NCBI GenBank assembly: GCA_964016885.1 | Contig: OZ024745.1 | Span: 3,968,001 to 4,032,000, forward strand | From: Eledone cirrhosa | Lineage: Eukaryota | Direction: 5' to 3' | DNA length: 64,000 nucleotides | Part shown: in pieces, positions 23,224-64,000 of the stretch | How the letters are laid out: the number at the start of each line of letters is the position of its first letter | How positions within the stretch are numbered: the first letter of the stretch is position 1 | The notes under the pieces: generated by a model | What the model was told of the DNA's origin: nothing | Database searches by the model: none | What the model saw: the letters and a program-made list of their open reading frames with translations, nothing else | Made by a program: the position numbers and the translations under genes

Positions 23224-23389
23224 ATAATTGAATATGAAAATAGAGTCCGAGCATATTCTACACCAGACAAGATATTCCGTTATTTTGCAACCTTGAAAGT
23301 TCATAATGCGGAGACAAGTGAATATGAAATTTGTATGACTCCATCTGATTTTGTGCGGTCAATAACTCCTGGGGTGAAACAACCTGATG
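23224..23389 (+). CDS. MICU1: Internal coding exon of calcium uptake protein 1, mitochondrial (166 nt, phase 0 to 1)
   Basis: Acceptor is ttttcatttatttccag| and donor is |gtaggt. The exon translates as [55 protein letters not shown], matching the recalled MICU1 segment [24 protein letters not shown]...[12 protein letters not shown]. Confidence 0.96.
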
Positions 23390-35800: not shown

Positions 35801-38800
35801 GTGGTGTGGTACAGTAGAGAGAGGGTGATGTGGTGTGGTACAGTGGAGAGAGGGTGGTGTGGTACAGTGGAGAGAGGGTGGTGTGGTGTGGTACAGTAGA
35901 GAGAGGGTGGTGTGGTACACTAGAGAGAGGGTGATGTGGTGTGGTACAGTGGAGAGAGGAGGATGTGGTGTGGTACAGTGGAGAGAGGGTGGTGTGGTGT
36001 GGTACAGTGGAGAGAGGGTTGTATGGTGTGGTACAGTGGAGAGAGGGTGGTGTGGTACAGTAGAGAGAGGGTGATGTGGTGTGGTACAGTGGAGAGAGGG
36101 TGGTGTGGTGTGGTACAATGGAGAGAGGGTGATGTGGTGTGGTACAGTGGAGAGAGGGTGATGTGGTGTGGTACAGTAGAGAGAGGGTGATGTGGTGTGG
36201 TACAGTGGAGAGAGGGTGGTGTGGTGTGGTACAGTGGAGAGAGGGTGGTGTGGTGTGGTACAGTGGAGAGAGGGTGGTGTGGTACAATGGGGAGAGGGTG
36301 GTGTGGTGTGGTACAGTGGAGAGAGGGTGATGTGGTGTGGTACAGTGGAGAGAGTGTGGTGTGGTACAGTGGAGAGAGGGTGATGTGGTGTGGTACAATG
36401 GAGAGAGGGTGATGTGGTGTGGTACAGTGGAGAGAGGGTGGTGTGGTACAGTAGAGAGAGGGTGATGTGGTGTGGTACAGTAGAGAGAGGGTGGTGTGGT
36501 GTGGTACAGTGGAGAGAGGGTGATGTGGTGTGGTACAGTGGAGAGAGGGTGATGTGGTGTGGTACAATGGAGAGAGGGTGATGTGGTGTGGTACAGTGGA
36601 GAGAGGGTGGTGTGGTGTGGTACAGTGGGGAGAGGGTGGTGTGGTGTGGTACAGTAGAGAGAGGGTGATGTGGTGTGGTACAGTGGAGAGAGGGTGGTGT
36701 GGTGTGGTACAGTGGAGAGAGGGTGATGTGGTGTGGTACAGTAGAGAGAGGGTGATGTGGTGTGGTACAGTGGAGAGAGGGTGATGTGGTGTGGTACAGT
36801 GGAGAGAGGGTGGTGTGGTGTGGTACAGTGGAGAGAGGGTGGTGTGGTACAGTGGAGAGAGGGTGGTGTGGTGTGGTACAGTGGAGAGAGGGTGATGTGG
36901 TGTGGTACAGTGGAGAGAGGGTGATGTGGAGTGGTACAGTGGAGAGAGGGTGGTGTGGTGTGGTACAGTGGAGAGAGGGTGGTGTGGTGTGGTACAGTGG
37001 AGAGAGGGTGATGTGGTGTGGTACAGTGGAGAGAGGGTGATGTGGTGTGGTACAGTGGAGAGAGGGTGGTGTGGTACAGTAGAGAGAGGGTGATGTGGTG
37101 TGGTACAGTGGAGAGAGGGTGATGTGGTGTGGTACAGTGGAGAGAGGGTGATGTGGTGTGGTACAGTGGAGAGAGGGTGGTGTGGTACAATAGAGAGAGG
37201 GTGATGTGGTGTGGTACAGTGGAGAGAGGGTGATGTGGTGTGGTACAGTGGAGAGAGGGTGGTGTGGTGTGGTACAGTGGAGAGAGGGTGGTGTGGTGTG
37301 GTACAGTGGAGAGAGGGTGGTGTGGTGTGGTACAGTGGAGAGAGGGTGGTGTGGTGTGGTACAGTGGAGAGAGGGTGGTGTGGTGTGGTACAGTGGAGAG
37401 AGGGTGGTGTGGTGTGGTACAGTGGAGAGAGGGTGGTGTGGTGTGGTACAGTGGGGAGAGGGTGGTGTGGTGTGGTACAATGGAGAGAGGGTGATGTGGT
37501 GTGGTACAGTGGAGAGAGGGTGATGTGGTGTGGTACAGTGGAGAGAGGGTGATGTGGTGTGGTACAATGGAGAGAGGGTGGTGTGGTGTGGTACAGTGGA
37601 GAGAGGGTGGTGTGGTGTGGTACAGTGGGGAGAGGGTGATGTGGTGTGGTACAGTGGGGAGAGGGTGGTGTGGTGTGGTACAATGGAGAGAGGGTGATGT
37701 GGTGTGGTACAGTGGAGAGAGGGTGATGTGGTGTGGTACAATGGAGAGAGGGTGGTGTGGTGTGGTACAGTGGAGAGAGGGTGGTGTGGTGTGGTACAGT
37801 GGAGAGAGGGTGATGTGGTGTGGTACAATGGAGAGAGGGTGGTGTGGTGTGGTACAGTGGAGAGAGGGTGGTGTGGTGTGGTACAGTGGAGAGAGGGTGG
37901 TGTGGTGTGGTACAGTGGGGAGAGGGTGGTGTGGTGTGGTACAATGGAGAGAGGGTGATGTGGTGTGGTACAGTGGAGAGAGGGTGATGTGGTGTGGTAC
38001 AGTGGAGAGAGGGTGGTGTGGTGTGGTACAGTGGAGAGAGGGTGGTGTGGTGTGGTACAGTAGAGAGAGGGTGGTGTGGTGTGGTACAGTGGAGAGAGGG
38101 TGATGTGGTACAGTGGAGAGAGGGTGGTGTGGTACAGTGGAGAGAGGGTGGTGTGGTGTGGTACAGTGGAGAGAGGGTGATGTGGTACAGTGGAGAGAGG
38201 GTGGTGTGGTACAGTGGAGAGAGGGTGGTGTGGTACAGTGGAGAGAGGGTGATGTGGTGTGGTACAGTAGAGAGAGGGTGGTGTGGTGTGGTACAGTGGA
38301 GAGAGGGTGATGTGGTGTGGTACAGTGGAGAGAGGGTGGTGTGGTGTGGTACAGTAGAGAGAGGGTGGTGTGGTGTGGTACAGTGGAGAGAGGGTGATGT
38401 GGTGTGGTACAGTGGAGAGAGGGTGATGTGGTGTGGTACAGTGGAGAGAGGGTGATGTGGTGTGGTACAGTGGAGAGAGGGTGATGTGGTGTGGTACAGT
38501 GGGGAGAGGGTGATGTGGTGTGGTACAGTGGGGAGAGGGTGGTGTGGTGTGGTACAATGGAGAGAGGGTGATGTGGTGTGGTACAGTGGAGAGAGGGTGA
38601 TGTGGTGTGGTACAATGGAGAGAGGGTGGTGTGGTGTGGTACAGTGGAGAGAGGGTGGTGTGGTGTGGTACAGTGGAGAGAGGGTGATGTGGTGTGGTAC
38701 AATGGAGAGAGGGTGGTGTGGTGTGGTACAGTGGAGAGAGGGTGGTGTGGTGTGGTACAGTGGAGAGAGGGTGGTGTGGTGTGGTACAGTGGAGAGAGGG

Positions 38801-40028
38801 TGATGTGGTGTGGTACAATGGAGAGAGGGTGATGTGGTGTGGTACAGTGGAGAGAGGGTGGTGTGGTGTGGTACAGTGGAGAGAGGGTGGCGTGGTGTGG
38901 TACAGCAGAGAGAGGGTGGTGTGGTGTGGTACAGTGGAGAGAGGGTGATGTGGTACAGTGGAGAGAGGGTGGTGTGGTACAGTGGAGAGAGGGTGGTGTG
39001 GTGTGGTACAGTGGAGAGAGGGTGATGTGGTACAGTGGAGAGAGGGTGGTGTGGTACAGTGGAGAGAGGGTGGTGTGGTGTGGTACAGTGGAGAGAGGGT
39101 GATGTGGTACAGTGGAGAGAGGGTGGTGTGGTGTGGTACAGTGGAGAGAGGGTGGTGTGGTGTGGTACAGTGGAGAGAGGGTGGTGTGGTACAGTGGAGA
39201 GAGGGTGGTGTGGTGTGGTACAGTAGAGAGAGGGTGGTGTGGTACAGTGGAGAGAGGGTGGTGTGGTGTGGTACAGTAGAGAGAGGGTGGTGTGGTGTGG
39301 TACAGTGGAGAGAGGGTGGTGTGGTGTGGTACAGTAGAGAGAGGGTGGTGTGGTACAGTGGAGAGAGGGTGGTGTGGTGTGGTACAGTAGAGAGAGGGTG
39401 GTGTGGTGTGGTACAGTGGAGAGAGGGTGGTGTGGTGTGGTACAGTGGAGAGAGGGTGGTGTGGTACAGTGGAGAGAGGGTGGTGTGGTGTGGTACAGTG
39501 GAGAGAGGGTGGTGTGGTGTGGTACAGTGGAGAGAGGGTGGTGTGGTACAGTGGAGAGAGGGTGGTGTGGTGTGGTACAGTAGAGAGAGGGTGGTGTGGT
39601 ACAGTGGAGAGAGGGTGGTGTGGTGTGGTACAGTAGAGAGAGGGTGGTGTGGTACAGTGGAGAGAGGGTGGTGTGGTACAGTGGAGAGAGGGTGGTGTGG
39701 TGTGGTACAGTGGAGAGAGGGTGGTGTGGTACAGTGGAGAGAGGGTGGTGTGGTGTGGTACAGTAGAGAGAGGGTGGTGTGGTACAGTGGAGAGAGGGTG
39801 GTGTGGTACAGTGGAGAGAGGGTGGTGTGGTGTGGTACAGTGGAGAGAGGGTGGTGTGGTGTGGTACAGTGGAGAGAGGGTGGTGTGGTGTGGTACAGTG
39901 GAGAGAGGGTGGTGTGGTGTGGTACAGTGGAGAGAGGGTGATGTGGTACAGTGGAGAGAGGGTGGTGTGGTGTGGTACAGTGGAGAGAGAGTGATGTGGT
40001 GTGGTACAGTGGAGAGAGGGTGATGTGG
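23886..40028. repeat. G-rich 29-bp satellite array (24-bp variant), about 16.1 kb and roughly 560-580 units, inside a MICU1 intron
   Basis: Unit is gtggtgtggtacagtggagagagggtg(a/g)t. The 24-bp variant lacks one gtggt. Confidence 0.99.
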
Positions 40029-40799: not shown

Positions 40800-41270
40800 C
40801 CATATTAGGCCGAAATATCAGGTCAGATCATCATTCCATATGGCCTCTGGCCACCATCTGGTTCTTCTCCACTGCTTTGGTGTCCACCCCATTGCTCTAA
40901 TAATTGTGTCTGAGATGAGAGATGTCACCAGCCCATGTTTGTTCATCTTGATGGTCTTCATTATGTCCTTCATGCCAGTCTGCTGTCCAACACAGGTGTT
41001 GTTCTTCTTGTCATGTAAGTTGATCCTGAGCAGGATTCGCTCTATTTTACATTGGACCACTGCAATCATCTCTGCAGTAGGTGGTATTGAGTACCCACAT
41101 CTCACTTCCATATGTCAACACCAGCAGAACATATGCATTAAACAGCTTTCTTTTGGTTTTCATTGTTCACTTGGGACTTCTAATGATGTTATAAACTTTT
41201 CCCAAAGTTATCCAGTCAAGCACAATTCTTCTTTTATCACAGCAGACAATTTTGACATCTTATCCTTTTC
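40800..41270 (-). mobile_element. Decayed RTE-clade LINE fragment (C-terminal part of the ORF), a different subfamily from the one at 51199
   Basis: Minus-strand translation gives IKRRIVLDWITLGKVYNII..MKTKRKLFNAYVLLVLTYGSEMW and, after a frameshift, ERILLRINLHDKKNN...WTPKQWRRTR...WNDDL. These are typical post-RT motifs of RTE elements, here with stops and frameshifts. Confidence 0.8.
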
Positions 41271-41345: not shown

Positions 41346-41383
41346 GTCTTGGTTTAGATCAGTTCCGTAAATTTGATCCTAAG
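41346..41383 (+). CDS. MICU1: Short internal coding exon of MICU1 (38 nt, phase 1 to 0)
   Basis: Acceptor is tcttcatttttccag| and donor is AAG|gtaagt. It joins the previous exon in frame as (G)LGLDQFRKFDPK, matching the recalled human LGLDQYIIKRFDGK. Confidence 0.93.
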
Positions 41384-41466: not shown

Positions 41467-42251
41467 TTTTCTTGTAAGTTAGCCTATATTTCTTGTAAGT
41501 TAGCCTATATTTCTTGTAAGTTAGCCTATATTTCTTGTAAGTTAGCCTATATTTCTTGTAAGTTAGCCTATATTTCTTGTAAGTTAGCCTATATTTCTTG
41601 TAAGTTAGCCTATATTTCTTGTAAGTTAGCCTATATTTCTTGTAAGTTAGCCTATATTTCTTGTAAGTTAGCCTATATTTCTTGTAAGTTAGCCTATATT
41701 TCTTGTAAGTTAGCCTATATTTCTTGTAAGTTAGCCTATATTTCTTGTAAGTTAGCCTATATTTCTTGTAAGTTAGCCTATATTTCTTGTAAGTTAGCCT
41801 ATATTTCTTGTAAGTTAGCCTATATTTCTTGTAAGTTAGCCTATATTTCTTGTAAGTTAGCCTATATTTCTTGTAAGTTAGCCTATATTTCTTGTAAGTT
41901 AGCCTATATTTCTTGTAAGTTAGCCTATATTTCTTGTAAGTTAGCCTATATTTCTTGTAAGTTAGCCTATATTTCTTGTAAGTTAGCCTATATTTCTTGT
42001 AAGTTAGCCTATATTTCTTGTAAGTTAGCATATATTTCTTGTAAGTTAGCATATATTTCTTGTAAGTTAGCATATATTTCTTGTAAGTTAGCATATATTT
42101 CTTGTAAGTTAGCCTATATTTCTTGTAAGTTAGCCTATATTTCTTGTAAGTTAGCCTATATTTCTTGTAAGTTAGCCTATATTTCTTGTAAGTTAGCCTA
42201 TATTTCTTGTAAGTTAGCCTATATTTCTTGTAAGTTAGCATATATTTCTTG
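41467..42251. repeat. 21-bp minisatellite, 37 copies, nearly homogeneous
   Basis: Unit is tttcttgtaagttagcctata; gtaagt recurs from 41474 to 42230 at a 21-nt period. Confidence 0.99.
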
Positions 42252-42617: not shown

Positions 42618-43309
42618 CGAGTGCCCAACCGGCATACTGCCTACGGAGGCAATTTTTCTTGCAACCATACACCTATATGTATATATATATATTATATATA
42701 CATTGATAGTATCATTCTAAATTTATGAATTTTACATCAAAAGTGTCATGTAGTGAGTAATTTTCTAGGTATTATTACATGAAATATTATATAATAAGTC
42801 AAAATATATGTGTATGTATATATTTGCATGTTTTTATTGTTTATATATTTATTTGCATAGTAAATTTATGAATTTTTCGTTTGTTTAATGGAAAATGTGT
42901 TTGTTTTTAATTTATAATGTTTAATTTCAGCTCAGTTAAAATATTTTGTATTAAATCTGATATTAAATGTTAGTTATTTTTTAGGTTTTTTTTATAGTTC
43001 AAATTGAGTGACATAGATTCTCGGGATTTTTAATTCTTTATTGAGTTAAATCTAATGCATTAACCTGTCAGATCCATGAAGTAGCTTGAAAATGTTACTT
43101 TGTCATTATTAACTTGGTACTTTTAGGAATGTTTCTCTTTAAACATCTACTTACACAGCAGTATATCAAAATAAAATTAATTTTTGTCAATTTTATTTCC
43201 ATCATACATATCTTTATATTCTACTTATAGGTATATTTTACTTGCTTTTTGCAACATATAGCACACATACTTAATAACTTATACTACATGTGAAGCTTAT
43301 TTTGTGGAG

Positions 43310-45011: not shown

Positions 45012-46016
45012 CAAACTACCTTGGTCCTTGGCCATCATTATAGCACGGTACTGGAATATAAGGAATCATATTTGGTTAATAAACTACAACCAGTAAATGT
45101 AGATCTAATTATGTAAATTTAAGCATGTAAAATATGTATATAAAGGATGTAGGATGGATGTGTTATCACTTCCTATATTATCAAAGTGTTTTCAGATTAT
45201 TTTAATTTAATTTACTACTGAAAAAAATAAACAAAATTGTTTAAGTTTTATAATCGTATATTTAATGAGAGAAAATGATACTATATTTCTTAATAAGCAA
45301 CATAAATATATACTCTCCATTAATTTAAAATATATTTCATAATTCTAAAATAAATCCTTTACTTAAAAATGTAAAGAATTTAAATGATTTAATAAAAAAT
45401 CCAAAAGTAAATCAGTTTATTTCAAACATAGCATTGTCTTCTTTTTGGTTAGATTTTAAAGTTTTACAAAATTTAAATTGGTGTTTTGTATCCTCTATAC
45501 ATTTAGTTTATCAACTACTAGACAATACATTTATTACATATCTATAGTATCCATAATCTATTTACTTTTTAACATACATACCTACCAGATGCAGTTGTGC
45601 CTATCATATGAAATTCTATAAGAATATACAACTACATTTATTTTTCTGTTTTTATACATGCTTTTTTGTTTTAAATTGGATATATAAAATTTAAATTTCT
45701 TTATTCATTTGATTTACTTATTTGTTTCTGCTATCCTCACACATTACATATATACTGTTGTGAATATTAGGTGTGTGTATATATATAGTAAGTAGAATCG
45801 AAGTCAGTGTTACAGCATATGTACAAACTTTATTGGCATATTACTAGTGCCACCTGTAACTTTTGTTACACACTTAACATATATAATATAAAACAATCAT
45901 ACATTTTTATGAAACCACCATGTTTTGGATGAATGATTTTAAACAAAGGACAGTACTTTAAATTAGTTGAGTAAATGTTCACATATTCTCTTCAATATAT
46001 GCTATTCTGTGTCTAG

Positions 46017-46026
46017 TTTACAAATG
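46017..46026 (+). other. Candidate 10-nt frame-shifting microexon of MICU1
   Basis: Sequence is tgctattctgtgtctag|TTTACAAATG|gtaagt. The donor is perfect, but the length is not a multiple of 3. Confidence 0.3.
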
Positions 46027-46426
46027 GTAAGTTCTGTTGGTTTCTTGATAATATTTATAGCAGCTCTACTTCAAGAATTCACAATGTTTCTCTTGTCCAT
46101 TATTAACTCTAGTGCTCCTTGTTGTATTTATGTATATATATGGTTATTGAGAATATGTGTTTTAGATTCACATGAATATCTAGACTTTTCTCTTTCAACC
46201 ATTTTATATTCTGTAACTGAAATTGGAATGAAGCTTTTTTTTATAAGTTTCATTTATCCTTAATTCTCTTGTGTTCTTTATTTCCTTCTTTTTATATATA
46301 ATATGAAATTATCTTTCTATTTATATATAATATGAAACTGTTTTGATTTTAAAAAAAAAAACTTTTTTCCTTCCAAAGATAAATAGCAAAATGTTGTTAT
46401 TTATTTCATCTCTTTTTGGCTTTTAG

Positions 46427-46438
46427 AAGGATTCATTG
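46427..46438 (+). CDS. MICU1: Candidate 12-nt alternative microexon of MICU1 (KDSL)
   Basis: Sequence is ttatttatttcatctctttttggcttttag|AAGGATTCATTG|gtgagt, with a long pyrimidine tract and consensus donor. It preserves frame after the phase-0 exon end. Confidence 0.6.
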
Positions 46439-47194
46439 GTGAGTTTAGTGTCCCTTTTAATATCTCTTTACCTTCCCCCCTCCATCCCTGCTCTCTCTTT
46501 CTCTCTCTTTTTCTCTCTAGACATACTCCTTTGATCCTACTGACAGATAACAATTTTTGGTCTTGATACATACATTTTTGTTCTAGAATCAGTGGAATGC
46601 CTTTCTCGTCTTCTTGTCTTCTGTGCAACGAAGACAGAATTCATTAAGACTTTTCATTTTACATTTTTGCCCATTCACTCTGTTCAATGAGTTTGCATAT
46701 TATTATATTTATTATTATTATTATTATTTAATAACTGTTGTTTACAATCTGGTTTTTGCACTTAGTCGAAGCTGTTGCCATGTAACAAAAACAACAGTAA
46801 CAAAGTATATAGTTGTTCTTTAAACATCACTTGTATCAGAAATCAGTGTTACTTTTTTATTTCTGCATTCTTCGTAGTATTTTCATTGCCTGCGGCACTA
46901 TTATAGATATTTCGCCACACAGTGTTTTGTTGTTTTACCCACCCCGTCCCCTAAAAGAAACTTATTAAAGTAATTTGACACAACATTCATTGCTAAACAT
47001 GACTGATGATAATGATTTGACACAACATACATTGCTAAACATGACTCTGACAAGGATGATTTCTTTTGGGAAGATTATTTTAGAGGGAAACAATAATGCT
47101 GAGCGTTATAAATGTCAAAAGGATAAAATAGTATTGAACTTGGTGAGATTTGAACTCTGAAATTAGCACAGTAAATATCTAGTTTACCACAAGA

Positions 47195-47720
47195 ACAAAA
47201 AGCACCCAGTCCACACTGTAAGATGGTCATGTTGGTGACATTACAAAAAGCACCCAGTCCACACTGTAAGATGGTCATGTTGGTGACATTACAAAAAGCA
47301 CCCAGTCCACACTGTAAGATGGTCATGTTGGTGACATTACAAAAAGCACCCAGTCCACACTGTAAGATGGTCATGTTGGTGACATCACAAAAAGCACCCA
47401 GTCTACCCTGTAAAGTGATCATGTTGGTGACACAAGAAAAAGCACCTATTCCGCCTTGTAAGTGGTTATACCGGTAACATGACAAAAAGTGCCCAGTCTA
47501 CTCTGTAAAGTGACATGATAAAAAGCGCTCAGTCAATCCTGTAAGGTGGTCGTGCTGGTGACATGACAAAAAGTACCCAGTCTACCCTGTAAAGTGATCG
47601 TGTTGGTGACATGATAAAAAGCACTCAGTCCATACTGTAAATGTAGTTGGTGTTAGGAAGGGCATCCAGACATAGAAACCAAACCAAAATATAGATGTAT
47701 ATGAGCAAGACATGGTCTTC
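47195..47720 (+). mobile_element. SINE-like element (family B) with about 9 internal 48-bp tandem repeats
   Basis: Unit is aaaaagcacccagtccacactgtaagatggtcatgttggtgacattac. It is followed by gtagttggtgttaggaagggcatccagacatagaaaccaaaccaaaa...gtatatgagcaagac, homologous to 21720-21780. Confidence 0.8.
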
Positions 47721-48050
47721 GGACCTGACTTGTCTCATAATAACCCTTCTGTCACGCTACAGTCCCAGCTGTGTGAAACATCATAATAATGTCATTGTAG
47801 AACATTTATTTGTTGTTATCCAGAGTTGTTACTTGAACTATATAACCTTGGTACAGTTTTAGCTTTATATATATTATCATTAGTATTTCTGATACTTTAT
47901 GTTATAATTGTTTAGAATGGTGGGTGGGAAACCTGATGGGGAGGACCGTCAGTTGTGTCAAAGACATAACAACCTCTCCTATCCACTTAGTGGAGTGTCA
48001 ACCATACATAAAGTGAGATCCCTGACCTGCTACAGACTTAGTCTCTCTTA

Positions 48051-48110
48051 GACCCGTCCAACCTTTGCTAACAGGGAAAGCAGACATTTAGACGACGACA
48101 ACGATGATGA
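48051..48110 (+). mobile_element. RTE-type 3' tail (end of a SINE or LINE fragment)
   Basis: gacccgtccaacctttgctaacagggaaagcagacatttagacgacgacaacgatgatga resembles the LINE end gacccgtcccacccttgcaagcagggaaaagcggacgtaaaatgatgatg. Confidence 0.75.
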
Positions 48111-48170
48111 AGTCCATGACAGGGTTTCAGTTTCTAGCTGGAGTTAAATAACAATATATTAAATGTAGTG

Positions 48171-48300
48171 AAGGCAGGTGACTAAGTGGTCGGAGTTGCA
48201 ATCATGAGGTTGTCAGTTTGATTCCCAGACCAGACAATACATTGTCCTTGAGCAAGACACTTTATTTCACATTGCTCTTTCTGCCAGGAGTTGCAACTGG
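48171..48300 (+). mobile_element. 5' part of a tRNA-derived SINE with a CORE-like motif
   Basis: A tRNA-like head (gtgactaagtggt...agtttgattccc) is followed by ttgtccttgagcaagacactttatttcacattgctc. Confidence 0.7.
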
Positions 48301-48583
48301 TTGATAGTATCAGCAATTGAAAAGACCAATGGAAACATTGTTTCCTAGGTCCAATTTGACAAGCTACACCACACTGTAAGCAAATAAGGTGTGGGAACTT
48401 GTAATTCAATTGCTATATTAAATGTAGTAGTATTTGATGACAAAATCATTTTGAATTCAAGTTTTGCTTCACTCCTCATCATTTAACATCCAATTCCCTG
48501 ACATTGATGATGAAGAAACTTGAAGTTTAAATGTATTCAAAATCATTTTCTCTTCAAATGTTACTACATCACTGAAAAAAATT

Positions 48584-48956
48584 GTGTGTCCCCATATGTC
48601 TGTTTCCCCGTGTGTGTGTGTGTGTGTCCGTGTGTGTTTCCCATTATGTGTGTTTCCCCGTGTGTGTGTCCCCCTGTGTCTGTGTGTCCGTGTCCCCCTG
48701 TGTGTGTGTGTCCATGTGTCGCCCCGTGTGTATGTGTCCCTGTGTTCGTGACCCCACCCCCCACCCCCCGTGTGTGTCCATGTCCCCCTGTGTCCGCATC
48801 CCCTGTGTGTCCCCCGTATGTGTGTGTCCCTGTGTACGTGTCCCCCTGTATGTGTGTCCGTGTCCTCGTGTGTGTGTACCCGTATGTGTGTGTACCTGTG
48901 TCCATGTCCCCCTGTGTATGTGTGTCCCCCCGTGTCCCTCCGTATGTGTGTGTCCG
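48584..48956. repeat. Low-complexity (TG)n/C-run cryptic repeat
   Basis: Irregular tgtgtgtccccc units. Confidence 0.9.
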
Positions 48957-49069
48957 TTCAATGAAGGGGAATCTAACTTGTGTTATTAAGAAATAAAATG
49001 TAAAATGAATCAGTTCAGGGATGTTTGTTATATAAGATCAGTGTGTAGTCTCTGGTCCCAAATAATAGA

Positions 49070-49087
49070 GGGGGGGGGGGGGGGGGG
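49070..49087. repeat. G18 homopolymer
   Basis: Read directly from the sequence. Confidence 0.9.
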
Positions 49088-49344
49088 TCAGTCATTTTTC
49101 TAGGTTGTCTCTGTTGGTTTTTTTTTTTAAACCTGAATTAGTGGTTTAGTTGACATATTGAGTCCCCAACCCTTCCTATTTTATAACATATGGGATTTCT
49201 AGTAATTTAATAAGCGGGGTTTGAGGGTTGGAAAAACTTATCAAGTTCTTTACTATTCACAAGTTTGGGCCTTTATGACCAAAATTACAGTGAAATGGTG
49301 TGTTGGGAATAGGTTTTAGCACTGGTTAATTCCATTTTTGTAAA

Positions 49345-49590
49345 CCCATGTGACCCAGTGGTTAGACTGTCAGACTATCATAATGCCATAAGTTCAATTC
49401 TTGGACCAGATGGGGTGATGTGTTGTGTTAAACACTTGACTTTATGTGTTGCTCCAGCTGAAAATGAGTACCTGTAATAAGTGGGGAAGGTTAACCCTGC
49501 AATGGACTGACATTTAATCTAGGGAGAAGTTTTCTAATCTCAGTCACTGATGAAACCAGGATCAGTACTGACCTGGTGAACCTGATGGCA
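49345..49590 (+). mobile_element. tRNA-derived SINE (family C), diverged
   Basis: Contains gtgacccagtggttag, aagttcaattcttgg, gttgctccag, aaccctgcaatggactgac and gaaaccaggatcagtactgacctggtgaacct; it is an inverted homolog of 40075-40340. Confidence 0.75.
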
Positions 49591-50707
49591 GATTATGATT
49601 GAATTTAATCTAGCTGTAAGTAATCCAGGGAGAGATACGTTATTTTGTCACTTTCCCTTTTAAGGGGTAAATGAAGAGTGAAGTGACTGTATTGACACTT
49701 ATTATATCAACCTTAATAGGATCTGGAATTTGTTGCTTGAGACATCAAATCAAATAATATATCAACTTTGTTAATTGCCTGTAATACTCAAGAACTAAAT
49801 ATCAATCATTATCATCATCATAAGCCAGAAAACATATACAGTCCTTTGATTACATATTCATCAGCTTGAAAATTATGTTTTTTTTCTTCCTTACACTTCC
49901 CCAAAATACTGCTGACAAATGAGTAACTTAGCTTGAAATATTCCTTGAAATAAAAATGTTTGAATAATCATTAGATGTTTTTATATTTTTGTTTCCTTCT
50001 GTGGCAAAGTATCTACAAGTATCTTAAAATATATAAATATTAGTTATAAGTTATAAGTTATTAGTAGTATTTTTCATTAAACTTCTTTGTCTCTGATGGA
50101 GACATAAGTCTACAAGTTTATAAGTTGCTGATATCTTCAATTCTTTTAATTAAAGATAAATATGCAGATGAGTCCTGCTACAAAAGAATGCCTTCTTGCA
50201 GTTCACTGAGAAAGTCTACCAAAACAAGTTTTACTATTTTCTATTTTAGTGTAGTTTCAGATTTCATTATTTTTCTTTGTATATATAATGAATATATATT
50301 TAATCTATATTTTACATACATATCTCAGTATTTTAAAAATGGTTTCAAATTTTTAGCATTCATAAAGTGTTGTTTTTTTTCCCCTCACTAACATGGTTTT
50401 GCTAGGTCTACAAATTTTGACATTTGCATGTCTTTTTGCCATGGATATTTACATGTGAATATTTTCATAATACTAACCTATTTTTTTCTCATGAACTGGA
50501 GTCTTTTTATTTTCTAGTTAATGAAGCTTTGATATAATCATATTGTTTCATTTAACATAAATGCAGACTATCTCAAGTAAAATGAAAATATGTTGTTTTT
50601 TTATATTGCCGTGGCATAGCCTCATTTTCATACCTTTGAAGACTGTGTTCTTTTTTTATTCTTTTCATTTTTTCCATATCAAAACACAAGTTATTATATA
50701 TATATAG

Positions 50708-50895
50708 GGCGGTGGATTGGTAGTATCGGTAGAGCATTGGACGCCATGCTTTGTAGCATAGAGTTACGGCCCTTTATGATCTGAGTTCAAATCCCGCCGA
50801 GGTTAACTTTGCCTTTCATCCTTATGGGGTCGATAAAATAAAATACCAGTAATACACTGGGATAATTGCTGGCCTTGTGACAAAAAGTAGAAACA
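50708..50895 (+). mobile_element. Apparently complete tRNA-derived SINE (family A) with a 15-bp target-site duplication
   Basis: Head is ggcggtggattggtagtatcggtagagc, with B-box gagttcaaatccc. The direct repeat attatatatatatag sits at 50693-50707 and 50896-50910. Confidence 0.9.
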
Positions 50896-51198
50896 ATTAT
50901 ATATATATAGTGTTATGTCACTACTTGCTGTTTTGTCATATAACACAAGATATTACATATATATAGTATGTAACTACTTGCTGTCATAAAATGTTGAAAT
51001 ATGGTAGAAAGAATTGGATGAATTCTTAATATCATGTTTTTATGATCAAGATAAGTTGTAATGAAGGTTTCTAAGTTGAGGAATAGTCCAAAATAATATT
51101 GTCATTTAGAAAACATTTAAAACATGAAATCTTTAAATGTCAAAATAATTGTACTGCTATTGTAATAATTCTCTTCATTTTTTTACTAGTTATATCTC

Positions 51199-52677
51199 AT
51201 AAATTGCTACAAAGGTAAAGGGAATGCTCTGGAGGGGAGCAATTATAGGGGTATAAAACTGATGGATCAGGTTATGAAAGTGGCTGAAAGTATATTAGCG
51301 CAACTAATTAGAGAAAGGGTCAAACTAGATGAGATGCAGTTTGGTTTTGTACCTGGTAAAAGTTTTACAGATGCCCTCTTCTTGCTGAGACAATTACAAG
51401 AGAGGTTCTTAGAGAAGAATAAGCCACTATACTTAGCTTTTGTTGACCTAGAGAAGGCCGTTGATAGGGTACCCCAATCTGTCATCTGGTGGTCCCTAAG
51501 GAAACTAGGTGTAGAGGAATGGCTTGTGAGGACAGTACAAAGTTTGTATAGAGGTGCTGTCAGTAAAGTGAGGGTAGGAATGGAGTTTAGTGAGGAATTC
51601 CAGATACAAGTAGGAGTACATCAGGGTTCATTCCTCAGCCCGCTCTTGTGCATTATAGTCCTCCAAGCCATAACAGGAGTTTAAGACTGGCTGTCCATGA
51701 GAACTTCTCTATGCTGACGATCTGGTTCTTATAGCAGAATCAGTAGAGGAGCTAGAGAATAAATTCTGGCTATGGAAACAGCAGTTGGAATCAAGAGGAC
51801 TGAGAGTGAACCTAGCTAAGACAAAAGTGTTGATGAGTAGAAAAGAGGACAAAACTCTGATTCCATCAGGGAAATGGCCATGTTCGATATGCAGAAAAGG
51901 AACTGGCATAAATTCTATAAAATGCACACAATGCAGATCTTGGGTACACAAGAGATGTAGTGGGAAAGCAGGCAAACTAACAGGTAGGGGAAAATACGTA
52001 TGCAGTAGAGGTACAGGGAAATTAGACAGTAGAAGTCGCATTGATAGACACATTTTTCAAATGCAGGCGGGTGCTATAGAAGTGGTGGATAGCTTCCGAT
52101 ACCTAGGAGATCAGATTAGCATGGGAGGGGGGTGTTTTGAGGCCATAGTATCTAGAATAAGGACGGGTTGGAAGAAGTTTAGGGAGCTGCTTCCTCTGCT
52201 GACAAAGAAGGGTTTCTCTCTGCGCACGAAAGGCCGGTTATATGATGCATGTATGAGGAGTGCGATGCTGCATGGAGGTGAGACTTGGGCAGCAACTGCA
52301 GAGGATATGTGACGGCTGGAGAGAAATGATGCAAGCATGCTCCGTTGGATGTGCAATGTCAATGTGCGTGAACAACCGAGCATGAATGTGTTGAGAGGGG
52401 TAAATTGTAGTGTGCGAGAGAGGAGACTGATGGTATGGACATGTGATACGCATGGAGGATGACCGATGGGTGAAGAAGTGCCAGGAAATGCCAGTTGAAG
52501 GAAGACGTGGTAGAGGTAGACCATGAAAAACATGGGTGGAGGTGGTGAGAGCAGACCTCTGATCGCTGAAGCTCACGGAGATGACGAAGGACCGTGACAA
52601 GTGGAGAGATGCTGTGCTGAATAGGACCCGTCCCACCCTTGCAAGCAGGGAAAAGCGGACGTAAAATGATGATGATG
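51199..52677 (+). mobile_element. 5'-truncated RTE-clade LINE with a disrupted reverse transcriptase
   Basis: Motifs include NCYKGKG..NYRGIKL, QFGFVPGK, LAFVDLEKAVDRVP, GVHQGSFLSP, LYADDL (YADD at 51710-51721), FRYLGD and MLHGGETW. There is a frameshift near 51678 plus in-frame stops. The element ends in an (atg)n tail, with a candidate TSD atatctc at 51192-51198 and 52678-52684. Confidence 0.95.
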
Positions 52678-53002
52678 ATATCTCTTTCTCACTTCTTTTC
52701 TCTCCTTCTCTTGAATAAATTGGAATAAAAGATGGTCGAAAATCTATGTTTCAGTATAGATTCCAATGGAGACTTAGCCACACATTGTCATAGAGATTTT
52801 ATCTTTCTAAAATATAATTTAGCAACCAATATGTTGCTACCGTCATCTGTTTTTACTTTTGCAAGATTGGTAATTATTAGATCTCTTTATTTGAAGTTTG
52901 ATCTTATAAGATGATGAAGGATGATATATCATCATTTAATATTTCTTATACGATAGCTTGCACACAAAAATAATATCAATATTATTTCTTTAATGATTGC
53001 TC

Positions 53003-53050
53003 TTCCAACCCGTGCTAGCGGGGAAAATGAACATTAAACAATGATGATGA
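53003..53050 (+). mobile_element. Isolated RTE-type 3' tail
   Basis: Sequence is ttccaacccgtgctagcggggaaaatgaacattaaacaatgatgatga. Confidence 0.65.
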
Positions 53051-53114
53051 GATCAAACTGGATTGCAATACAGCATTACTTCATGTATCTCAATCTCTTG
53101 TTATCCTGTCTAGG

Positions 53115-53275
53115 CCTAGCCGGCAAATTAGCAGTCATTAGAATGTTGGATAGAATGCTTTGTGGTATTCATTTTGGCTCTCTGCACTCTTAGTTCAAAC
53201 CCCACTGAGGTCAACTTTACATTGCATCCTTTTGTGGACGATAAAAAAAGTACCAGTCTAGTACTGGAGTTGATT
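53115..53275 (+). mobile_element. tRNA-derived SINE (family A), diverged and incomplete at the 3' end
   Basis: Sequence includes tagttcaaaccccactgaggtcaactttacattgcatccttttgtggacgataaaaaaagtaccagt. Confidence 0.8.
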
Positions 53276-53439
53276 CTTCCTCTATATCTCTCACTTCTCT
53301 CTCTCTCCTTCTCTGAAAGAAATTGTCTGTGTTCAGAGTTTAAAATGGCCAACAAACAGCCTGTGTCAGGACAACACCTCTACAACTCCACCAGGAGTTA
53401 CAGGTTCATTCTATGCTTAGTATTTTCAGATTTAATCAG

Positions 53440-53460
53440 ATTGTTTCTCACATCTTTGGT
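53440..53460 (+). other. Candidate 21-nt microexon (IVSHIFG)
   Basis: Sequence is tattttcagatttaatcag|ATTGTTTCTCACATCTTTGGT|gtgagt. It preserves frame, but an upstream AG at 53428-53429 competes and would give 31 nt. Confidence 0.3.
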
Positions 53461-54229
53461 GTGAGTCTGTGATATCATGTATTTAGAATATATACTGAGA
53501 ACAGTGTGATTGACTGTCTTTTATCAATAAATCAATGTTGTTGAATTCTAGCCACTTCTCAAGTAACTCAACATAAATGAGTCTGTACATTCCCAACAAT
53601 AATCTCACAACTCACATCAATTACTCTTAAATTAAAATTTATATTGATTTAAATGTTTTTCCACCCACTTATATTGACAGTTTAACTATTTTCATCATGT
53701 GTCTTCAAATATAATTTCATTTGGTTTAACTACTAGCAATGAAAATTATAAACTTTGCTGTAGAAAACTGTACAGTTATAATCATGTCTATGTGTTTAAT
53801 CTCTGCTTAGAACACACCAAAAATTATGTAAAAGACCCCCAAAATGGTAAAAATATGACTGAATATGCCAGAAGGTCTAGCACTTTTCATGATATCAAAT
53901 GCAAGTTATTTTTTATAACTCTCTACTTTCAACCATCTGAATTTCTATAATTCTGTTTTATTCACAATTGAAATCCTACTGCAGGCATTGGGTTGTGTAT
54001 GTTTACAATCATATAACTTTGTTAGCCTCAATCTTCCTGCTTAACACTTTTCACTGCTGGATATGATTAGCAGCAGAGAAGACAACCAGATTTAAAAGTA
54101 ATTGTTCCAACAATAAGGAAATTTCAAATTTTGAGGGAACAATTTCACCTATTGCAGCAGGAATGTATATATATATATAATATAGCATCATCATTAATAT
54201 ATATGTGTGTGTGTGTGTGTGTCGTCATT

Positions 54230-54348
54230 TCTGAGTTCAAATCCCACTGAGGTTAACTTTGCCTTTCATCCTTACGGGGTCGATAAAATAAAATACCAGT
54301 AATACACTGGGTAATTGCTGGCCTTGTGCCAAAAGTAGAAACAATTAT
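54230..54348 (+). mobile_element. 5'-truncated SINE (family A) next to a (TG)n tract
   Basis: Nearly identical to 50780-50898. Confidence 0.88.
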
Positions 54349-55060
54349 TTTATGTCTGTTGAAGTAATGCTGCATTACAGTTATCTCATACCAGTATACA
54401 AATTAGACATAAAAATGGTTGTGTTTAGCAGTTGTTGAGTACTTCACTTTTTATGACAATTCTACTACCTTCAGTTCTGACATAAACCTAACATTAGATA
54501 TGGTGATAATGTATGCTGTGTACAAGAAGTAGACAGTGTTTAATTTTACACAGCTGAAATATATCAAAATTCTAACCATCAATCTATTACTCTATCAAAC
54601 CGAGTTATCTCTTTTTCCACTTTAGGAAGGCTTGATCAATTTATCAACACTGCTTTTTCCACAGATGAATAAAGATTAAATCTATTTAAACAGGACTCCA
54701 CTTTAAATAAACCTTTTGTTAAATAATGTTCATATATTCAGATTCTAATTATTATTATTTTTTATTTTATTTAGATGTAGATCTTTTATTTATTGTTTTC
54801 TCTGTTTCCATCTCTCTCTTTTGGGTCCCATTTCCCTCACAGCCCTCTCGCTGTATTTTGTTTATTCACTTTGCTTATATTGTAGAAAGAAATGAAAATG
54901 GTCAAATATACTTCATTACCTCTTGTGTACCTATCTTAATTAGTTTAATTACTTGGAAAAATGAATATAAAATCTCTCATTCTCTGTCTTACACACACAA
55001 CACATACATACAATTCCTTCATGTTATTAGAAATTCATTCATAAAGCCATCCCTTCTATG

Positions 55061-55063
<3 letters not shown>

Positions 55064-55130
<67 letters not shown>
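55064..55130. repeat. (TC)n microsatellite
   Basis: Read directly from the sequence. Confidence 0.97.
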
Positions 55131-55133
<3 letters not shown>

Positions 55134-55831
55134 TGAGTATTGTATATTTTAAGAGCTTTATCAAGAAGTTGTTCCTGTCTTCTACAATGTCAAGAAATGT
55201 AACAACAGTTTCTTCTTCCAACCACTTATATTCGCATATCCATGTAGTCATTGGAAAAAGGAACATACTAATGACAGAGTCTCTATATATGGTCACTTGA
55301 CATGCCTGAAATAACAGCCTATCATCTTAGTAAAGGACATGTTGGATAATGTGGTCCATTCACACAAGGAAACGTGTGGGTCATGACTGGAATATTTTTG
55401 GTCATAGATCTTCTCACTCAGTACTGACCTGGGGTTAAACAACAACATTCATATTTTTCCTTCCAATAAAATCAACAAAAAAACAACATGTCCCTCATCT
55501 TTCCATTGTTAAAGTATCTGGGGGTAAAAGAACACATGCTTATCACTTCTTTGTTGCTTGGTTTAATCTAAGGAATTTCAATCATTTTGCAACAATTTTA
55601 TTCAGCCTTCACTGCCTTTTATTATTTTTTTAATTGAATTCTTCTGCATGTCTTTCTAAATTACATGTCTCTCTTAAATTTCCAAGAAAACAACAGTAGC
55701 TGTTCATTGTCATTTGCTGTTTTACTGCTGCTATATGTTGTTGTTGTTTAAAACTTATTGTCAACAACGGTTGGTATGAGTTCTTCTCTATATGGTCATT
55801 TCATTACATTCTACTTTACTTCTTTAATCAG

Positions 55832-55849
55832 AACCCTCGGATATCAAAG
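55832..55849 (+). CDS. MICU1: Candidate 18-nt alternative microexon of MICU1 (NPRISK)
   Basis: Sequence is ttctactttacttctttaatcag|AACCCTCGGATATCAAAG|gtaagt, with a pyrimidine tract and perfect AAG|GTAAGT donor. It preserves frame, has no stop, and is GC-richer than its flanks. Confidence 0.65.
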
Positions 55850-56193
55850 GTAAGTTTAAATTCCCCTCAAACTGCTTACAAAAGGCTTTAGTATATTAAA
55901 GCAGGAATCTTATCAAGCATCTCACTGACAAATCTTCCTAATTTAGTTAAACTTTCAATCAGACAAAATATTTCTTTCAAAACCCTTTCCTTAAAACCCC
56001 TCTAATTGACACATTAAAATCACTGAGAGGTATGACTTCCTCTTCCTACTCCCTACCTAACACTGCATTCATTCCCTCCACAAATATTAGCTACATCTGC
56101 AAATATATGAATTAAACATATAAATGTTACTTAAGATTGTCTTTTTACATAATACAGTAGACAGTGGGATAAAAGTATTTCTAGATTCTATTG

Positions 56194-59100
56194 GCTCTCC
56201 TTAATCAGAAGATAGAAAGGTAGATGACATCAACACAGTGTAGTTTATAGTGTTATAGCTCTCCTTAATCAGAAGATAGAAAGGTAGATGACATCAACAC
56301 AGTGTAGTTTATAGTGTTATAGCTCTCCTTAATCAGAAGATAGAAAGGTAGATGACATCAACACACTGTAGTTTATAGTGTTATAGCTCTTCTTAATCAG
56401 AAAATAGAAAGCTAGATGACATCAACACAGTGTAGTTTATAATGCTATAGCTCTCCTTAATCAGAAGTCTGAAAGGTAGATGACATCAACACAGTGTAGT
56501 TTATAGTGTTATAGCTCTCCTTAATCAGAATCTGAAAGGTAGATGACATCAACACAGTGTAGTTTATAGTGTTATAGCTCTCCTTAATCAGAATCTGAAA
56601 GGTAGATGACATCAACACAGTGTAGTTTATAGTGTTATAGCTCTCCTTAATCAGAAGTCTGAAAGGTAGATGACATCAACACAGTGTAGTTTATAGTGTT
56701 ATAGCTCTTCTTAATCAGAAGATAGAAAGCTAGATGACATCAACACAGTGTAGTTTATAGTGTTATAGCTCTCTTTAATCAGAAGATAGAAAGGTAGATG
56801 ACATCAACACAGTGTAGTTTATAGTGTTATAGCTCTCGTTAATCAGAGGATAGAAAGGTAGATGACATCAACACAGTGTAGTTTGTAGTGTTATAGCTCT
56901 CGTTAATCAAGTGAAAAAAAGGTAGATGACATCAACACAGTGTAGTTTATAGTGTTATAGCTCTCGTTAATCAGAGGATAGAAAGGTAGATGACATCAAC
57001 ACAGTGTAGTTTATAGTGTTATAGCTCTCCTTAATCAGAAGATAGAAAGGTAGATGACATCAACACAGTGTAGTTTATAGTGTTATAGCTCTCCTTAATC
57101 AGAGGATAGAAAGGTAGATGACATCAACACAGTGTAGTTTATAGTGTTATAGCTCTCCTTAATCAGAAGGTAGAAAGGTAGATGACATCAACACAGTGTA
57201 GTTTATAGTGTTATAGCTCTCCTTAATCAGAAGATAGAAAGGTAGATGACATCAACACAGTGTAGTTTATAGTGTTATAGCTCTCCTTAATCAGAAGATA
57301 GAAAGGTAGATGACATCAACACAGTGTAGTTTATAGTGTTATAGCTCTCCTTAATAAGAAGATTGAAAGGTAGATGACATCAACACAGTGTAGTTTATAG
57401 TGTTGTAGCTCTCCTTAATCAGAAGATAGAAAGGTAGATGACATAAACGCAGTGTAGTTTATAGTGTTATAGCTCTCCTTAATCAGAAGATAGAAAGGTA
57501 GATGACATAAACGCAGTGTAGTTTATAGTGTTATAGCTCTCCTTAATCAGAGGATAGAAAGGTAGATGACATCAACACAGTGTAGTTTATAGTGTTATAG
57601 CTCTCCTTAATAAGAAGATTGAAAGGTAGATGACATCAACACAGTGTAGTTTATAATGTTATAGCTCTCCTTAATCAGAAGGTAGAAAGGTAGATGACAT
57701 CAACACAGTGTAGTTTATAGTGTTATAGCTCTCCTTAATAAGAAGATTGAAAGGTAGATGACATCAACACAGTGTAGTTTATAATGTTATAGCTCTCCTT
57801 AATCAGAAGGTAGAAAGGTAGATGACATCAACACAGTGTAGTTTATAGTGTTATAGCTCTCCTTAATAAGAAGATTGAAAGGTAGATGACATCAACACAG
57901 TGTAGTTTATAGTGTTGTAGCTCTCCTTAATCTGAGGATAGAAAGGTAGATGACATCAACACAGTGTAGTTTATAATGTTATAGCTCTCCTTAATCAGAA
58001 GGTAGAAAGGTTGATGACATCAACACAGTGTAGTTTATAGTGTTATAGCTCTCCTTAATCAGAGGATAGAAAGGTAGATGACATCAACACAGTGTAGTTT
58101 ATAGTGTTATAGCTCTCCTTAATCAGAGGATAGAAAGGTAGATGACATCAACACAGTGTAGTTTATAGTGTTATAGCTCTCCTTAATCAGAGGATAGAAA
58201 GGTAGATGACATCAACACAGTGTAGTTTATAGTGTTATCGCTCTCCTTAATCAGAAGTCTGAAAGGTAGATGACATCAACACAGTGTAGTTTATAGTGTT
58301 ATAGCTCTCCTTAATCAGAAGACAGAAAGGTAGATGACATCAACACAGTGTAGTTTATAGTGTTATAGCTCTTCTTAATCAGAAAATAGAAAGCTAGATG
58401 ACATCAACACAGTGTAGTTTATAGTGTTATAGCTCTCCTTAATCAGAGGATAGAAAGCTAGATGACATCAACACAGTGTAGTTTATAGTGGTATAGCTCT
58501 TCTTAATCAGAAGATAGAAAGGTAGATGACATCAACACAGTGTAGTTTATAGTGTTATAGCTCTCCTTAATCAGAAGATAGAAAGGTAGATGACATCAAC
58601 ACAGTGTAGTTTATAGTGTTATAGCTCTCCTTAATCAGAAGATAGAAAGGTAGATGACATCAACACAGTGTAGTTTATAGTGTTATAGCTCTTCTTAATC
58701 AGAAAATAGAAAGGTAGATGACATCAACACAGTGTAGTTTATAGTGTTATAGCTCTTCTTAATCAGAAAATAGAAAGCTAGATGACATCAACACAGTGTA
58801 GTTTATAGTGTTATAGCTCTCCTTAATCAGAAGATAGAAAGGTAGATGACATCAACACAGTGTAGTTTATAGTGTTATATCTCTTCTTAATCAGAAGATA
58901 GAAAGGTAGATGACATCAACACAGTGTAGTTTATAGTGTTATAGCTCTTCTTAATCAGAAAATAGAAAGCTAGATGACATCAACACAGTGTAGTTTATAG
59001 TGTTATAGCTCTCCTTAATCAGAAGATAGAAAGGTAGATGACATCAACACACTGTAGTTTATAGCTCTTCTTAATCAGAAAATAGAAAGGTAGATGACAT

Positions 59101-62100: not shown

Positions 62101-64000
62101 ATGACATCAACACAGTGTAGTTTATAGTGTTATAGCTCTTCTTAATCAGAAAATAGAAAGGTAGATGACATCAACACAGTGTAGTTTATAGTGTTATAGC
62201 TCTTCTTAATCAGAAAATAGAAAGCTAGATGACATCAACACAGTGTAGTTTATAGTGTTATAGCTCTCCTTAATCAGAAGATAGAAAGGTAGATGACATC
62301 AACACAGTGTAGTTTATAGTGTTATATCTCTTCTTAATCAGAAGATAGAAAGGTAGATGACATCAACACAGTGTAGTTTATAGTGTTATAGCTCTTCTTA
62401 ATCAGAAAATAGAAAGCTAGATGACATCAACACAGTGTAGTTTATAGTGTTATAGCTCTCCTTAATCAGAAGATAGAAAGGTAGATGACATCAACACACT
62501 GTAGTTTATAGCTCTTCTTAATCAGAAAATAGAAAGGTAGATGACATCAACACAGTGTAGTTTATAGTGTTATAGCTCTCCTTAATCAGAAGATAGAAAG
62601 GTAGATGACATCAACACAGTGTAGTTTATAGTGTTATACCTCTCCTTAATCAGAGGATAGAAAGGTAGATGACATCAACACAGTGTAGTTTATAGTGTTA
62701 TAGCTCTCCTTAATAAGAAGATAGAAAGGTAGATGACATCAACACAGTGTAGTTTATAGTGTTATAGCTCTTCTTAATCAGAAGTCTGAAAGGTAGATGA
62801 CATCAACACAGTGTAGTTTATAGTGTTATAGCTCTCCTTAATCAGAAGATAGAAAGGTAGATGACATCAACACAGTGTAGTTTATAGTGTTATAGCTCTC
62901 CTTAATCAGAATCTGAAAGGTAGATGACATCAACACAGTGTAGTTTATAGTGTTATAGCTCTTCTTAATCAGAAGATAGAAAGCTAGATGACATCAACAC
63001 AGTGTAGTTTATAGTGTTATAGCTCTCCTTAATCAGAAGATAGAAAGGTAGATGACATCAACACAGTGTAGATTATAGTATTATAGCTCTCGTTAATCAG
63101 AGGATAGAAAGGTAGATGACATCAACACAGTGTAGTTTATAGCGTTATAGCTCTCGTTAATCAAGTGAAAAAAAGGTAGATGACATCAACACAGTGTAGT
63201 TTATAGTGTTATAGCTCTACTTAATCAGAAGATAGAAAGGTAGATGACATAAACACAGTGTAGTTTATAGTGTTATAGCTCTCTTTAATCAGAGGGTAGA
63301 AAGTTAGATGACATCAACACAGTGTAGTTTATAGTGTTATAGCTCTCCTTAATCGGAAGATAGAAAGGTAGATGACATCAACACAGTGTAGTTTATAGTG
63401 TTATAGCTCTCCTTAATCAGAAGACAGAAAGGTAGATGGCATCAACACAGTGTAGTTTATAGTGTTATAGCTCTCCTTAATCAGAAGACAGAAAGGTAGA
63501 TGGCATCAACACAGTGTAGTTTATAGTGTTATAGCTCTCCTTAATAAGAAGATAGAAAGGTAGATGACATCAACACAGTGTAGTTTATAGTGTTGTAGCT
63601 CTCCTTTATCAGAAGATAGAAAGGTAGATGACATAAACGCAGTGTAGTTTATAATGTTATAGCTCTCCTTAATCAGAAGGTAGAAAGGTAGATGACATCA
63701 ACACAGTGTAGTTTATAGTGTTATAGCTCTCCTTAATCAGAAGATAGAAAGTTGGATGACATCAACACAGTGTAGTTTATAGTGTTATAGCTCTCCTTAA
63801 TCAGAAGACAGAAAGGTAGATGGCATCAACACAGTGTAGTTTATAGTGTTATAGCTCTCCTTAATAAGAAGATTGAAAGGTAGATGACATCAACACAGTG
63901 TAGTTTATAGTGTTGTAGCTCTCCTTAATCAGAAGATAGAAAGGTAGATGACATAAACGCAGTGTAGTTTATAATGTTATAGCTCTCCTTAATCAGAAGG
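56194..64000. repeat. 64-bp satellite array, about 122 copies, continuing past the right edge
   Basis: Unit is gctctccttaatcagaagatagaaaggtagatgacatcaacacagtgtagtttatagtgttata, starting at 56194 and 56258. Confidence 0.99.

Follow-up and report, generated by a model that had tools for sequence, protein, structure and literature searches.

A 12-nt cassette microexon encoding KDSL at the MICU1.1 junction of octopod MICU1

The closest described counterpart of the exon considered here is the MICU1.1 variant of MICU1, the vertebrate gatekeeper of mitochondrial calcium. In mouse MICU1 the four residues EFWQ, encoded by the 12-nt, frame-preserving exon 5', are inserted after residue 181, and a second exon, 5'', adds the dipeptide TE (PMC8909990); most of the vertebrate sequences that we fetched carry DFWQ or DFWK in place of EFWQ. 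MICU1.1, a form enriched in muscle and brain, is under the control of RBFOX2, has a higher affinity for Ca2+ and is resistant to MICU2; the human TE insert alone has little effect and leaves the behaviour with MICU2 unchanged (PMC8909990). How four residues far from the EF-hands raise the Ca2+ affinity about tenfold is described by the same authors as unexplained, because the loop that holds the insert is unresolved in the crystal structures (PMC8909990).

Two further systems invite comparison. The first comprises the neural microexons that depend on the eMIC domain of Srrm3/4 and Srrm234 (PMC8797185; PMC13281805); the zebrafish micu1 microexons are srrm3-dependent (PMC13281805). The second is ‘type I convergence’, the occurrence of different tissue-specific exons at equivalent intron positions, for instance in fly spg and DOCK3/4 (bioRxiv 10.64898/2026.09.05.749416; PMC8797185). 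The main texts of these two type I sources contain no occurrence of MICU1. Our literature search returned nothing on the splicing of MICU1 in molluscs or cephalopods, and no paper that names invertebrate MICU1 exons in its title; most subscription papers lay outside its reach, and a preprint supplement with O. bimaculoides data may list such exons.

Here we describe a 12-nt exon encoding KDSL in a window of 64,000 nt from Eledone cirrhosa (contig OZ024745.1, positions 3,968,001 to 4,032,000). The exon itself is already part of automated RefSeq/GenBank annotation: Octopus MICU1 records including XP_029657338.1, XP_036355963.1 and CAI9717533.1 share the exact KDSL peptide, but they are annotation only, and we found no description of it and no analysis of its regulation or evolution. 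Our main reading, to which we give a probability of roughly 0.75, is that it is a frame-preserving cassette of octopod MICU1 which adds KDSL or DSL at the MICU1.1 junction, likely stems from a 21-nt mollusc exon and not from the vertebrate one, and would likely tune calcium gatekeeping in a tissue-dependent manner.

Host gene, splice sites and isoforms

The window contains two coding exons of MICU1, here termed A and B, followed by the KDSL exon and a second cassette microexon (Table 1). Exon A is identical to Octopus MICU1 at 50/55 positions and to four sister-clade proteins at 49/55, and gave no match when searched alone against Pfam; exon B ends in phase 0 and is the upstream neighbour of the cassettes. 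The gene is therefore that of an octopod whose protein differs from the named ones. In insects exon A is tandemly duplicated (proteins P0001, P0020 and P0021), marking a second splicing hotspot of MICU1, and the fly has alternative exons A of 160 and 163 nt, one of which is labelled neural.

Table 1. MICU1 exons and splicing-related features in the Eledone cirrhosa window
Feature	Position	Strand	Evidence or remark
MICU1 coding exon A (IIEYENR...QPD-G)	23224..23389	+	52/55 identical to Argonauta (Argonauta hians) MICU1
MICU1 38-nt exon B, GLGLDQFRKFDPK	41346..41383	+	13/13 tblastn match to O. sinensis X1; ag/gtaagt sites
Conserved intronic island around the KDSL exon	46156..46928	+	contig of another species (run X9)
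Pyrimidine tract and acceptor AG	46397..46426	+	tract 46397-46424 is 82% C/T; AG at 46425-46426
Second AG of the tandem (NAGNAG) acceptor	46428..46429	+	KDSL and DSL isoforms both in O. sinensis
12-nt cassette microexon KDSL, AAGGATTCATTG	46427..46438	+	9-nt DSL form starts at 46430
Donor gtgagt	46439..46444	+	sequence; read-through region 46439..46449
CU-rich element, 84% pyrimidine with a TCTCT run	46445..46530	+	3' of the KDSL donor
Second cassette microexon NPRISK, 18 nt	55832..55849	+	NPRTSK/NPRTPK in relatives

The KDSL exon preserves the frame and, with its 12 nt between canonical ag and gtgagt sites, is a microexon; the succession of pyrimidine tract, ttttag, 12 nt and gtgagt reported in the initial annotation is exact in the sequence (46397-46444). 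Upstream of the acceptor 40 nt are free of AG, the preceding AG standing at -42, and a TCTCT lies at -18. When both strands of the whole window were scanned for YAG and GTRAG separated by 3-60 nt, with an upstream pyrimidine content of at least 0.75, four matches were obtained on the plus strand and none on the minus strand. Three of them are exons known from the proteins of relatives (exon B, KDSL and NPRISK), and the fourth, at 40979-41014, has no counterpart exon in those proteins. A total of 14,321 non-tandem nucleotides of the window contain two frame-preserving candidates of 3-27 nt where 200 local shuffles predict 0.155, and one candidate of 12 nt where they predict 0.025. A DNA contig of the same organism (X6) spans 45817-46487 with zero differences; it is possibly the source of the assembly and hence not independent. 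Just beyond the conserved island, 46958-46969 forms a weak 12-nt candidate (aag, AAACTTATTAAA, gtaatt) that has no isoform support.

The FDPKKDSL isoforms by which the exon was to be verified exist. Among 15 listed proteins of an Octopus cluster of 20, all of them automated annotations, four include KDSL, four DSL and seven neither; the annotated isoforms of O. sinensis/vulgaris show all three states, DSL being the product predicted from the second AG of ttttagAAG. Octopods possess three cassettes at the junction, namely KDSL, NPRISK and an 11-residue cassette, DMSTELVEGLE, for which tblastn found no match within the window. Out of the 12 ways to combine KDSL, DSL or none with NPRTSK or none and DMSTELVEGLE or none, the O. 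sinensis isoforms X1-X5 and X7-X12 represent 11, and the twelfth occurs in O. vulgaris and O. bimaculoides; as products of automated annotation these combinations are not necessarily supported over their full length.

Outside the octopods, and independently of these annotations, two of the ten junction-covering proteins in a Logan cluster carry KDSL. Members of this cluster are full-length ORFs of 591-594 aa on contigs of 1.9-2.0 kb and therefore spliced; they fall in a clade (support 100/99) that is sister to the octopods (100/100), has 72-75% protein identity and presumably represents squid/cuttlefish. Several isoforms of the sister clade (P0140, P0141, P0142 and P0144-P0146) have a lone Asn after FDPK, possibly from a 3-nt microexon, for which the window offers one weak candidate only (53142, with a poor donor). 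KDSL is absent from three listed O. bimaculoides isoforms, from one Argonauta protein and from five proteins of two other clusters. Inclusion and skipping of the exon are established in relatives, and we infer the same for Eledone cirrhosa itself. Runs X1 and X5, which had the character of DNA, contained no splice joints and so speak neither for nor against it. The 4-residue insertion originally proposed is alternatively included in those relatives, with the refinements that two other cassettes share the junction and that a 3-residue DSL form accompanies it. That 46427-46438 is a real cassette exon we regard as virtually certain.

The flanking intron and its candidate signals

The initial annotation placed the exon in an element-free, pyrimidine-rich context of 1.5 kb, held to be unusual in this window, and proposed that the conservation of 45500-46950 be assessed. 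On a contig of another species (run X9) the 773-nt island around the KDSL exon shows 39 substitutions (5%; about 95% identical) and 33 gap letters, 45244-45486 on the same contig has 43 substitutions over 243 nt (18%), and 55445-56027 around NPRISK has 65 substitutions and 37 gap letters over 583 nt. Among the pieces listed for X9 against 45015-56190, the two longest sit exactly around the two microexons and the remainder are repeat matches of about 115-135 nt; the roughly 670 nt that separate 45244-45486 from the island are not among them. Conservation is found for 46156-46928, in one other species. The claim of an unusual context held up only in part: the sequence is 60% pyrimidine, but five other non-tandem stretches reach 45-59%, the depth of the bin 45761-46133 in X6 is that of a repeat (1654, against 12-81 for the bins next to it), and the intron contains several other low-copy stretches. 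The distinctive feature of the locus is the cross-species conservation of 46156-46928 rather than a 1.5-kb pyrimidine block, and the island is likely to be splicing-regulatory.

Tandem repeats account for 48,469 of the 64,000 bases (76% of the window). Large intronic arrays extend over 1-20710, 23886-40028, 41468-42251 and 56194-64000 (a 54-mer x386, a 29-mer x568, a 21-mer x37 and a 64-mer x122), and the G-rich 29-mer array has a GC skew of about 0.87. The 64-nt satellite at 56194-64000, with 122+ copies, begins about 345 nt past the NPRISK exon, and its units read ttaatcag, 10-11 nt and gt (84 counted), resembling the NPRISK splice sites. This similarity was attained by 5 of 2000 local shuffles and by 76 of 100 in the window-wide comparison, where it is not exceptional; the units might conceivably act as decoy or pseudo-exons. 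The remains of a broken non-LTR retrotransposon (Pfam RVT_1, E 7e-16), of high copy number in its own and in related genomes, occupy 51190-52312.

The KDSL exon has the small size of eMIC microexons, and its AG-free zone of 40 nt and UCUC-containing tract may be further likenesses. It lacks two of the hallmarks described in PMC8797185: UGC does not occur within 300 nt upstream of its acceptor, nor a CUAAY branch motif within 80 nt. Unlike MICU1.1 it also lacks an RBFOX motif: in a motif test no UGCAUG was present within 300 nt of the exon, the nearest TGCATG lying at 42825 and 50425. Another TGCATG lies 187 nt upstream of the NPRISK exon. The RNA structure of 46330-46560 is unexceptional in score (z +0.30), and a hairpin formed by the last 60 nt of intron ahead of the KDSL acceptor (z -2.9) was rejected as a specific signal because the 60 nt upstream of exon B give an equal z of -2.9. 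In the mechanism that we propose, inclusion and skipping would be controlled through the conserved CU-rich flanks, where our guess is that CU-binding (PTB-like) repressors act.

Descent from a mollusc exon

Among 14 genera of gastropods and bivalves, 12 have a cassette of seven residues (corresponding to 21 nt) at the same junction: KDSLDDL, KDSLADL, KDNLFEM, KDSIPIW, KESLKDL, TDKLWEV, KDDFRTL, KDDVHSL, KESIADL, KESVAEL, KDNLKAL and NDSLHTL, with the consensus K-D-S-L-x-D/E-L. They come from hand-picked within-genus isoform pairs and were chosen by length only; Pecten, redundant with Mizuhopecten, was omitted from the profile, and a Xenopus pair was dropped owing to a cross-species mismatch. 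The cassettes are mutually similar, their mean pairwise BLOSUM score being 13.1 vs -4.4 after shuffling (maximum -0.7 in 1000 shuffles), and pairs of a gastropod with a bivalve cassette average 12.8. We scored 37 other cassettes in two registers (74 tests) against the resulting profile. KDSL, which corresponds to the first four residues of the consensus, fits with p ~1e-4 (at the protein level, over four residues), followed by Aplysia DSLADL (2e-4), chiton KDTLS (9e-4), DSL (1e-3), the six-residue Dreissena DNLNDL (2e-3), nemertean DELDDW (0.004-0.009, not significant over 74 tests) and Mya KQRL (0.01-0.03). Vertebrate DFWQ and DFWK do not fit (p 0.14-0.23), nor do octopus NPRTSK and the 11-residue cassette (p 0.19 or more); oysters have no 7-residue cassette, and their 8-residue TGDFKQIL does not fit either (p 0.2-0.3).

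KDSL shows the K-[DE]-[SND]-hydrophobic beginning of the mollusc cassette, likewise at the junction after FDP[KQT]. Variants without the first K recur, as DSL in Octopus, as DSLADL in Aplysia X2 against KDSLADL in X1, and as DNLNDL in Dreissena. The length departs from the seven residues of the mollusc form in octopods (four residues) and in the chiton (five). Given the cassette of 12/14 genera, chiton KDTLS and the K-dropping pair of Aplysia, the KDSL exon is likely to be an old mollusc exon; its homology to the 7-residue exon is, on these peptide comparisons, very probable, and we infer that it represents the cephalopod form of an exon that predates the chiton split. That split is dated to the Cambrian.

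The 12-nt exon would have arisen in a cephalopod ancestor by shortening of the older 21-nt exon, through the gain of an internal GTGAGT donor. Reading on past the present donor yields KDSLVSL and then a GT at 46448-46449 (+22), a combination of Leu codon and GT that recurs at 9/768 positions of the island; no 21-nt KDSLVSL isoform was seen among the isoforms. The idea that this is a remnant of the older exon end was noticed post hoc, and VSL repeats immediately afterwards, so that it stays speculative. In metagenome contigs the exact 24-nt pattern had 0 matches, and the metagenome scans yielded no locus holding a mollusc-type cassette at the DNA level. A Patella pair (P0306 vs P0443) has the cassette KDSIPIW followed by a constitutive exon that starts KDSMEM, a hint that the beginning of this exon may have been duplicated to give rise to the cassette.

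Position, loop and alternative readings

Human PDB chains align YIIKRFDGK/KISQER with QF--RKFDPK/KDSL, and at the protein level DGK is directly followed by each of the vertebrate inserts, namely DFWQ, DFWK in lamprey, TE and the longer cassettes of birds, crocodiles and sharks. By protein alignment the KDSL exon and MICU1.1 exon 5' have in common the host gene, the exon 5/6 junction after DGK, the 12-nt length and the frame, and both are stacked among several cassettes in a loop that lies away from the EF-hands and is unresolved in structures. The initial annotation was thus right that the position is shared and the sequence different, as the alignment, the insertion points and the comparison of KDSL with [DE]FW[QK] all indicate. 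KDSL differs from the vertebrate insert in having no sequence similarity to it and no aromatic FW, in its tandem acceptor with a 9-nt form and in its likely mollusc homologue of 21 nt. The equality in size, which had been emphasised, is correct but probably secondary and coincidental, because 4-residue cassettes occur here also in a beetle (Tribolium, HDFQ), a shrimp (Penaeus, SAEE) and clams (KRQM), and because of that likely 21-nt homologue. The intron position is old. A scan for related loci returned 80, mostly spliced or intron-poor; among 11 examined, six have a GT at the same end of exon B and represent four distinct genomic sequences (L062, L066, L068/L069 and L077/L078), L075 has no GT there and four have no exon-B match. 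Fly coordinates also show a 38-nt exon. The five of the 11 loci whose next exon was located contain no microexon candidate.

The KDSL isoform of O. vulgaris/sinensis, as modelled by AlphaFold, has the fold of MICU1, and its KDSL (residues 259-262) lies in a low-confidence loop (pLDDT 53, residues 261-270). Alignment with the human PDB chains puts the insert about 50 residues N-terminal to human Asp231, which belongs to EF-hand 1 (PMC7055370). KDSL would lengthen this flexible loop ahead of EF-hand 1, in combination with the two further cassettes, and we give about even odds that it tunes gating in the manner of MICU1.1. The cassette may instead be real but nearly neutral, the loop tolerating insertions so that exons accumulate without tuning MCU gating. 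The great number of unrelated inserts, 1-21 aa long, that animals carry at this junction, the low confidence of the loop and the little effect of TE alone (PMC8909990) agree with such neutrality; we nonetheless consider it unlikely, since KDSL is identical in octopods and their sister clade despite the 72-75% identity of the whole proteins, about 770 nt of flank are conserved at about 95%, and the 7-residue form has been kept across gastropods and bivalves.

Somewhat less probable again is that the KDSL exon is orthologous to vertebrate exon 5', both descending from a single bilaterian microexon that has since diverged in sequence along each lineage. We take CG4495 to be the fly MICU1 gene. 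The GO tables in the supplement of PMC8797185 agree with this assignment, and in Drosophila the 38-nt exon B is followed by an intron of only 56 nt, with a 9-nt eMIC-dependent microexon two introns downstream of the KDSL-equivalent intron (PMC8797185). Deep orthology draws on the shared intron and on the order of its exons, the first cassette after the donor being the one concerned in octopods and in mouse alike (a 12-nt before a 6-nt exon, table S2 of PMC8797185). Inserts that are loosely acidic and then aromatic occur elsewhere (oyster TGDFKQIL, Tribolium HDFQ, Gigantopelta TDKLWEV), and nemertean DELDDW fits the mollusc profile, albeit weakly and without significance over the tests made. 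Against this, the fly has only the 56-nt intron here and its eMIC microexon elsewhere, DFWQ and DFWK fall outside that profile, the amphioxus cassettes at this junction are unrelated in sequence, and exon gain recurs commonly at equivalent introns (10.64898/2026.09.05.749416; PMC8797185). We consider it probable that the KDSL exon is independent of exon 5'; it would then have an origin separate from DFWQ and be convergent in position with MICU1.1. It resembles the type I convergent exons as a lineage-specific microexon in the equivalent intron of orthologous genes (10.64898/2026.09.05.749416; PMC8797185), a likeness of position and lineage only, the type I exons being tissue-specific. That the exon is a splice-like motif produced by chance, or an artefact of annotation, is scarcely tenable: random occurrences of such motifs spanning 3-60 nt are to be expected (1.2), but the isoforms of relatives, with the exact peptide and the predicted NAGNAG variant, largely refute it, and the flank is conserved.

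A wider scheme, which we hold to be doubtful, would turn the loop encoded at this intron into a bilaterian-wide splicing dial for mitochondrial calcium gatekeeping. A mollusc exon of the form K-D-S-L-x-x-L and a K-dropping acceptor would predate the chiton split and perhaps be lophotrochozoan, if nemertean DELDDW belongs with them; in cephalopods a new donor would have trimmed the exon to 12 nt, and stacking with the other cassettes would have given a combinatorial code of 12 states that sets uptake thresholds specific to neurons or muscle as MICU1.1 does.

The KDSL exon represents no new type of system. It is a candidate for an invertebrate microexon of great age whose tandem acceptor is conserved, and it exemplifies convergence in position. 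KDSL, DSL and the 7-residue mollusc forms constitute a natural series of sequence-unrelated inserts at the same point as the vertebrate one, by which the length of the loop can be separated from its sequence. If inserts unrelated in sequence do mimic EFWQ, the mechanism of MICU1.1 would be an effect of loop length, which is directly testable.
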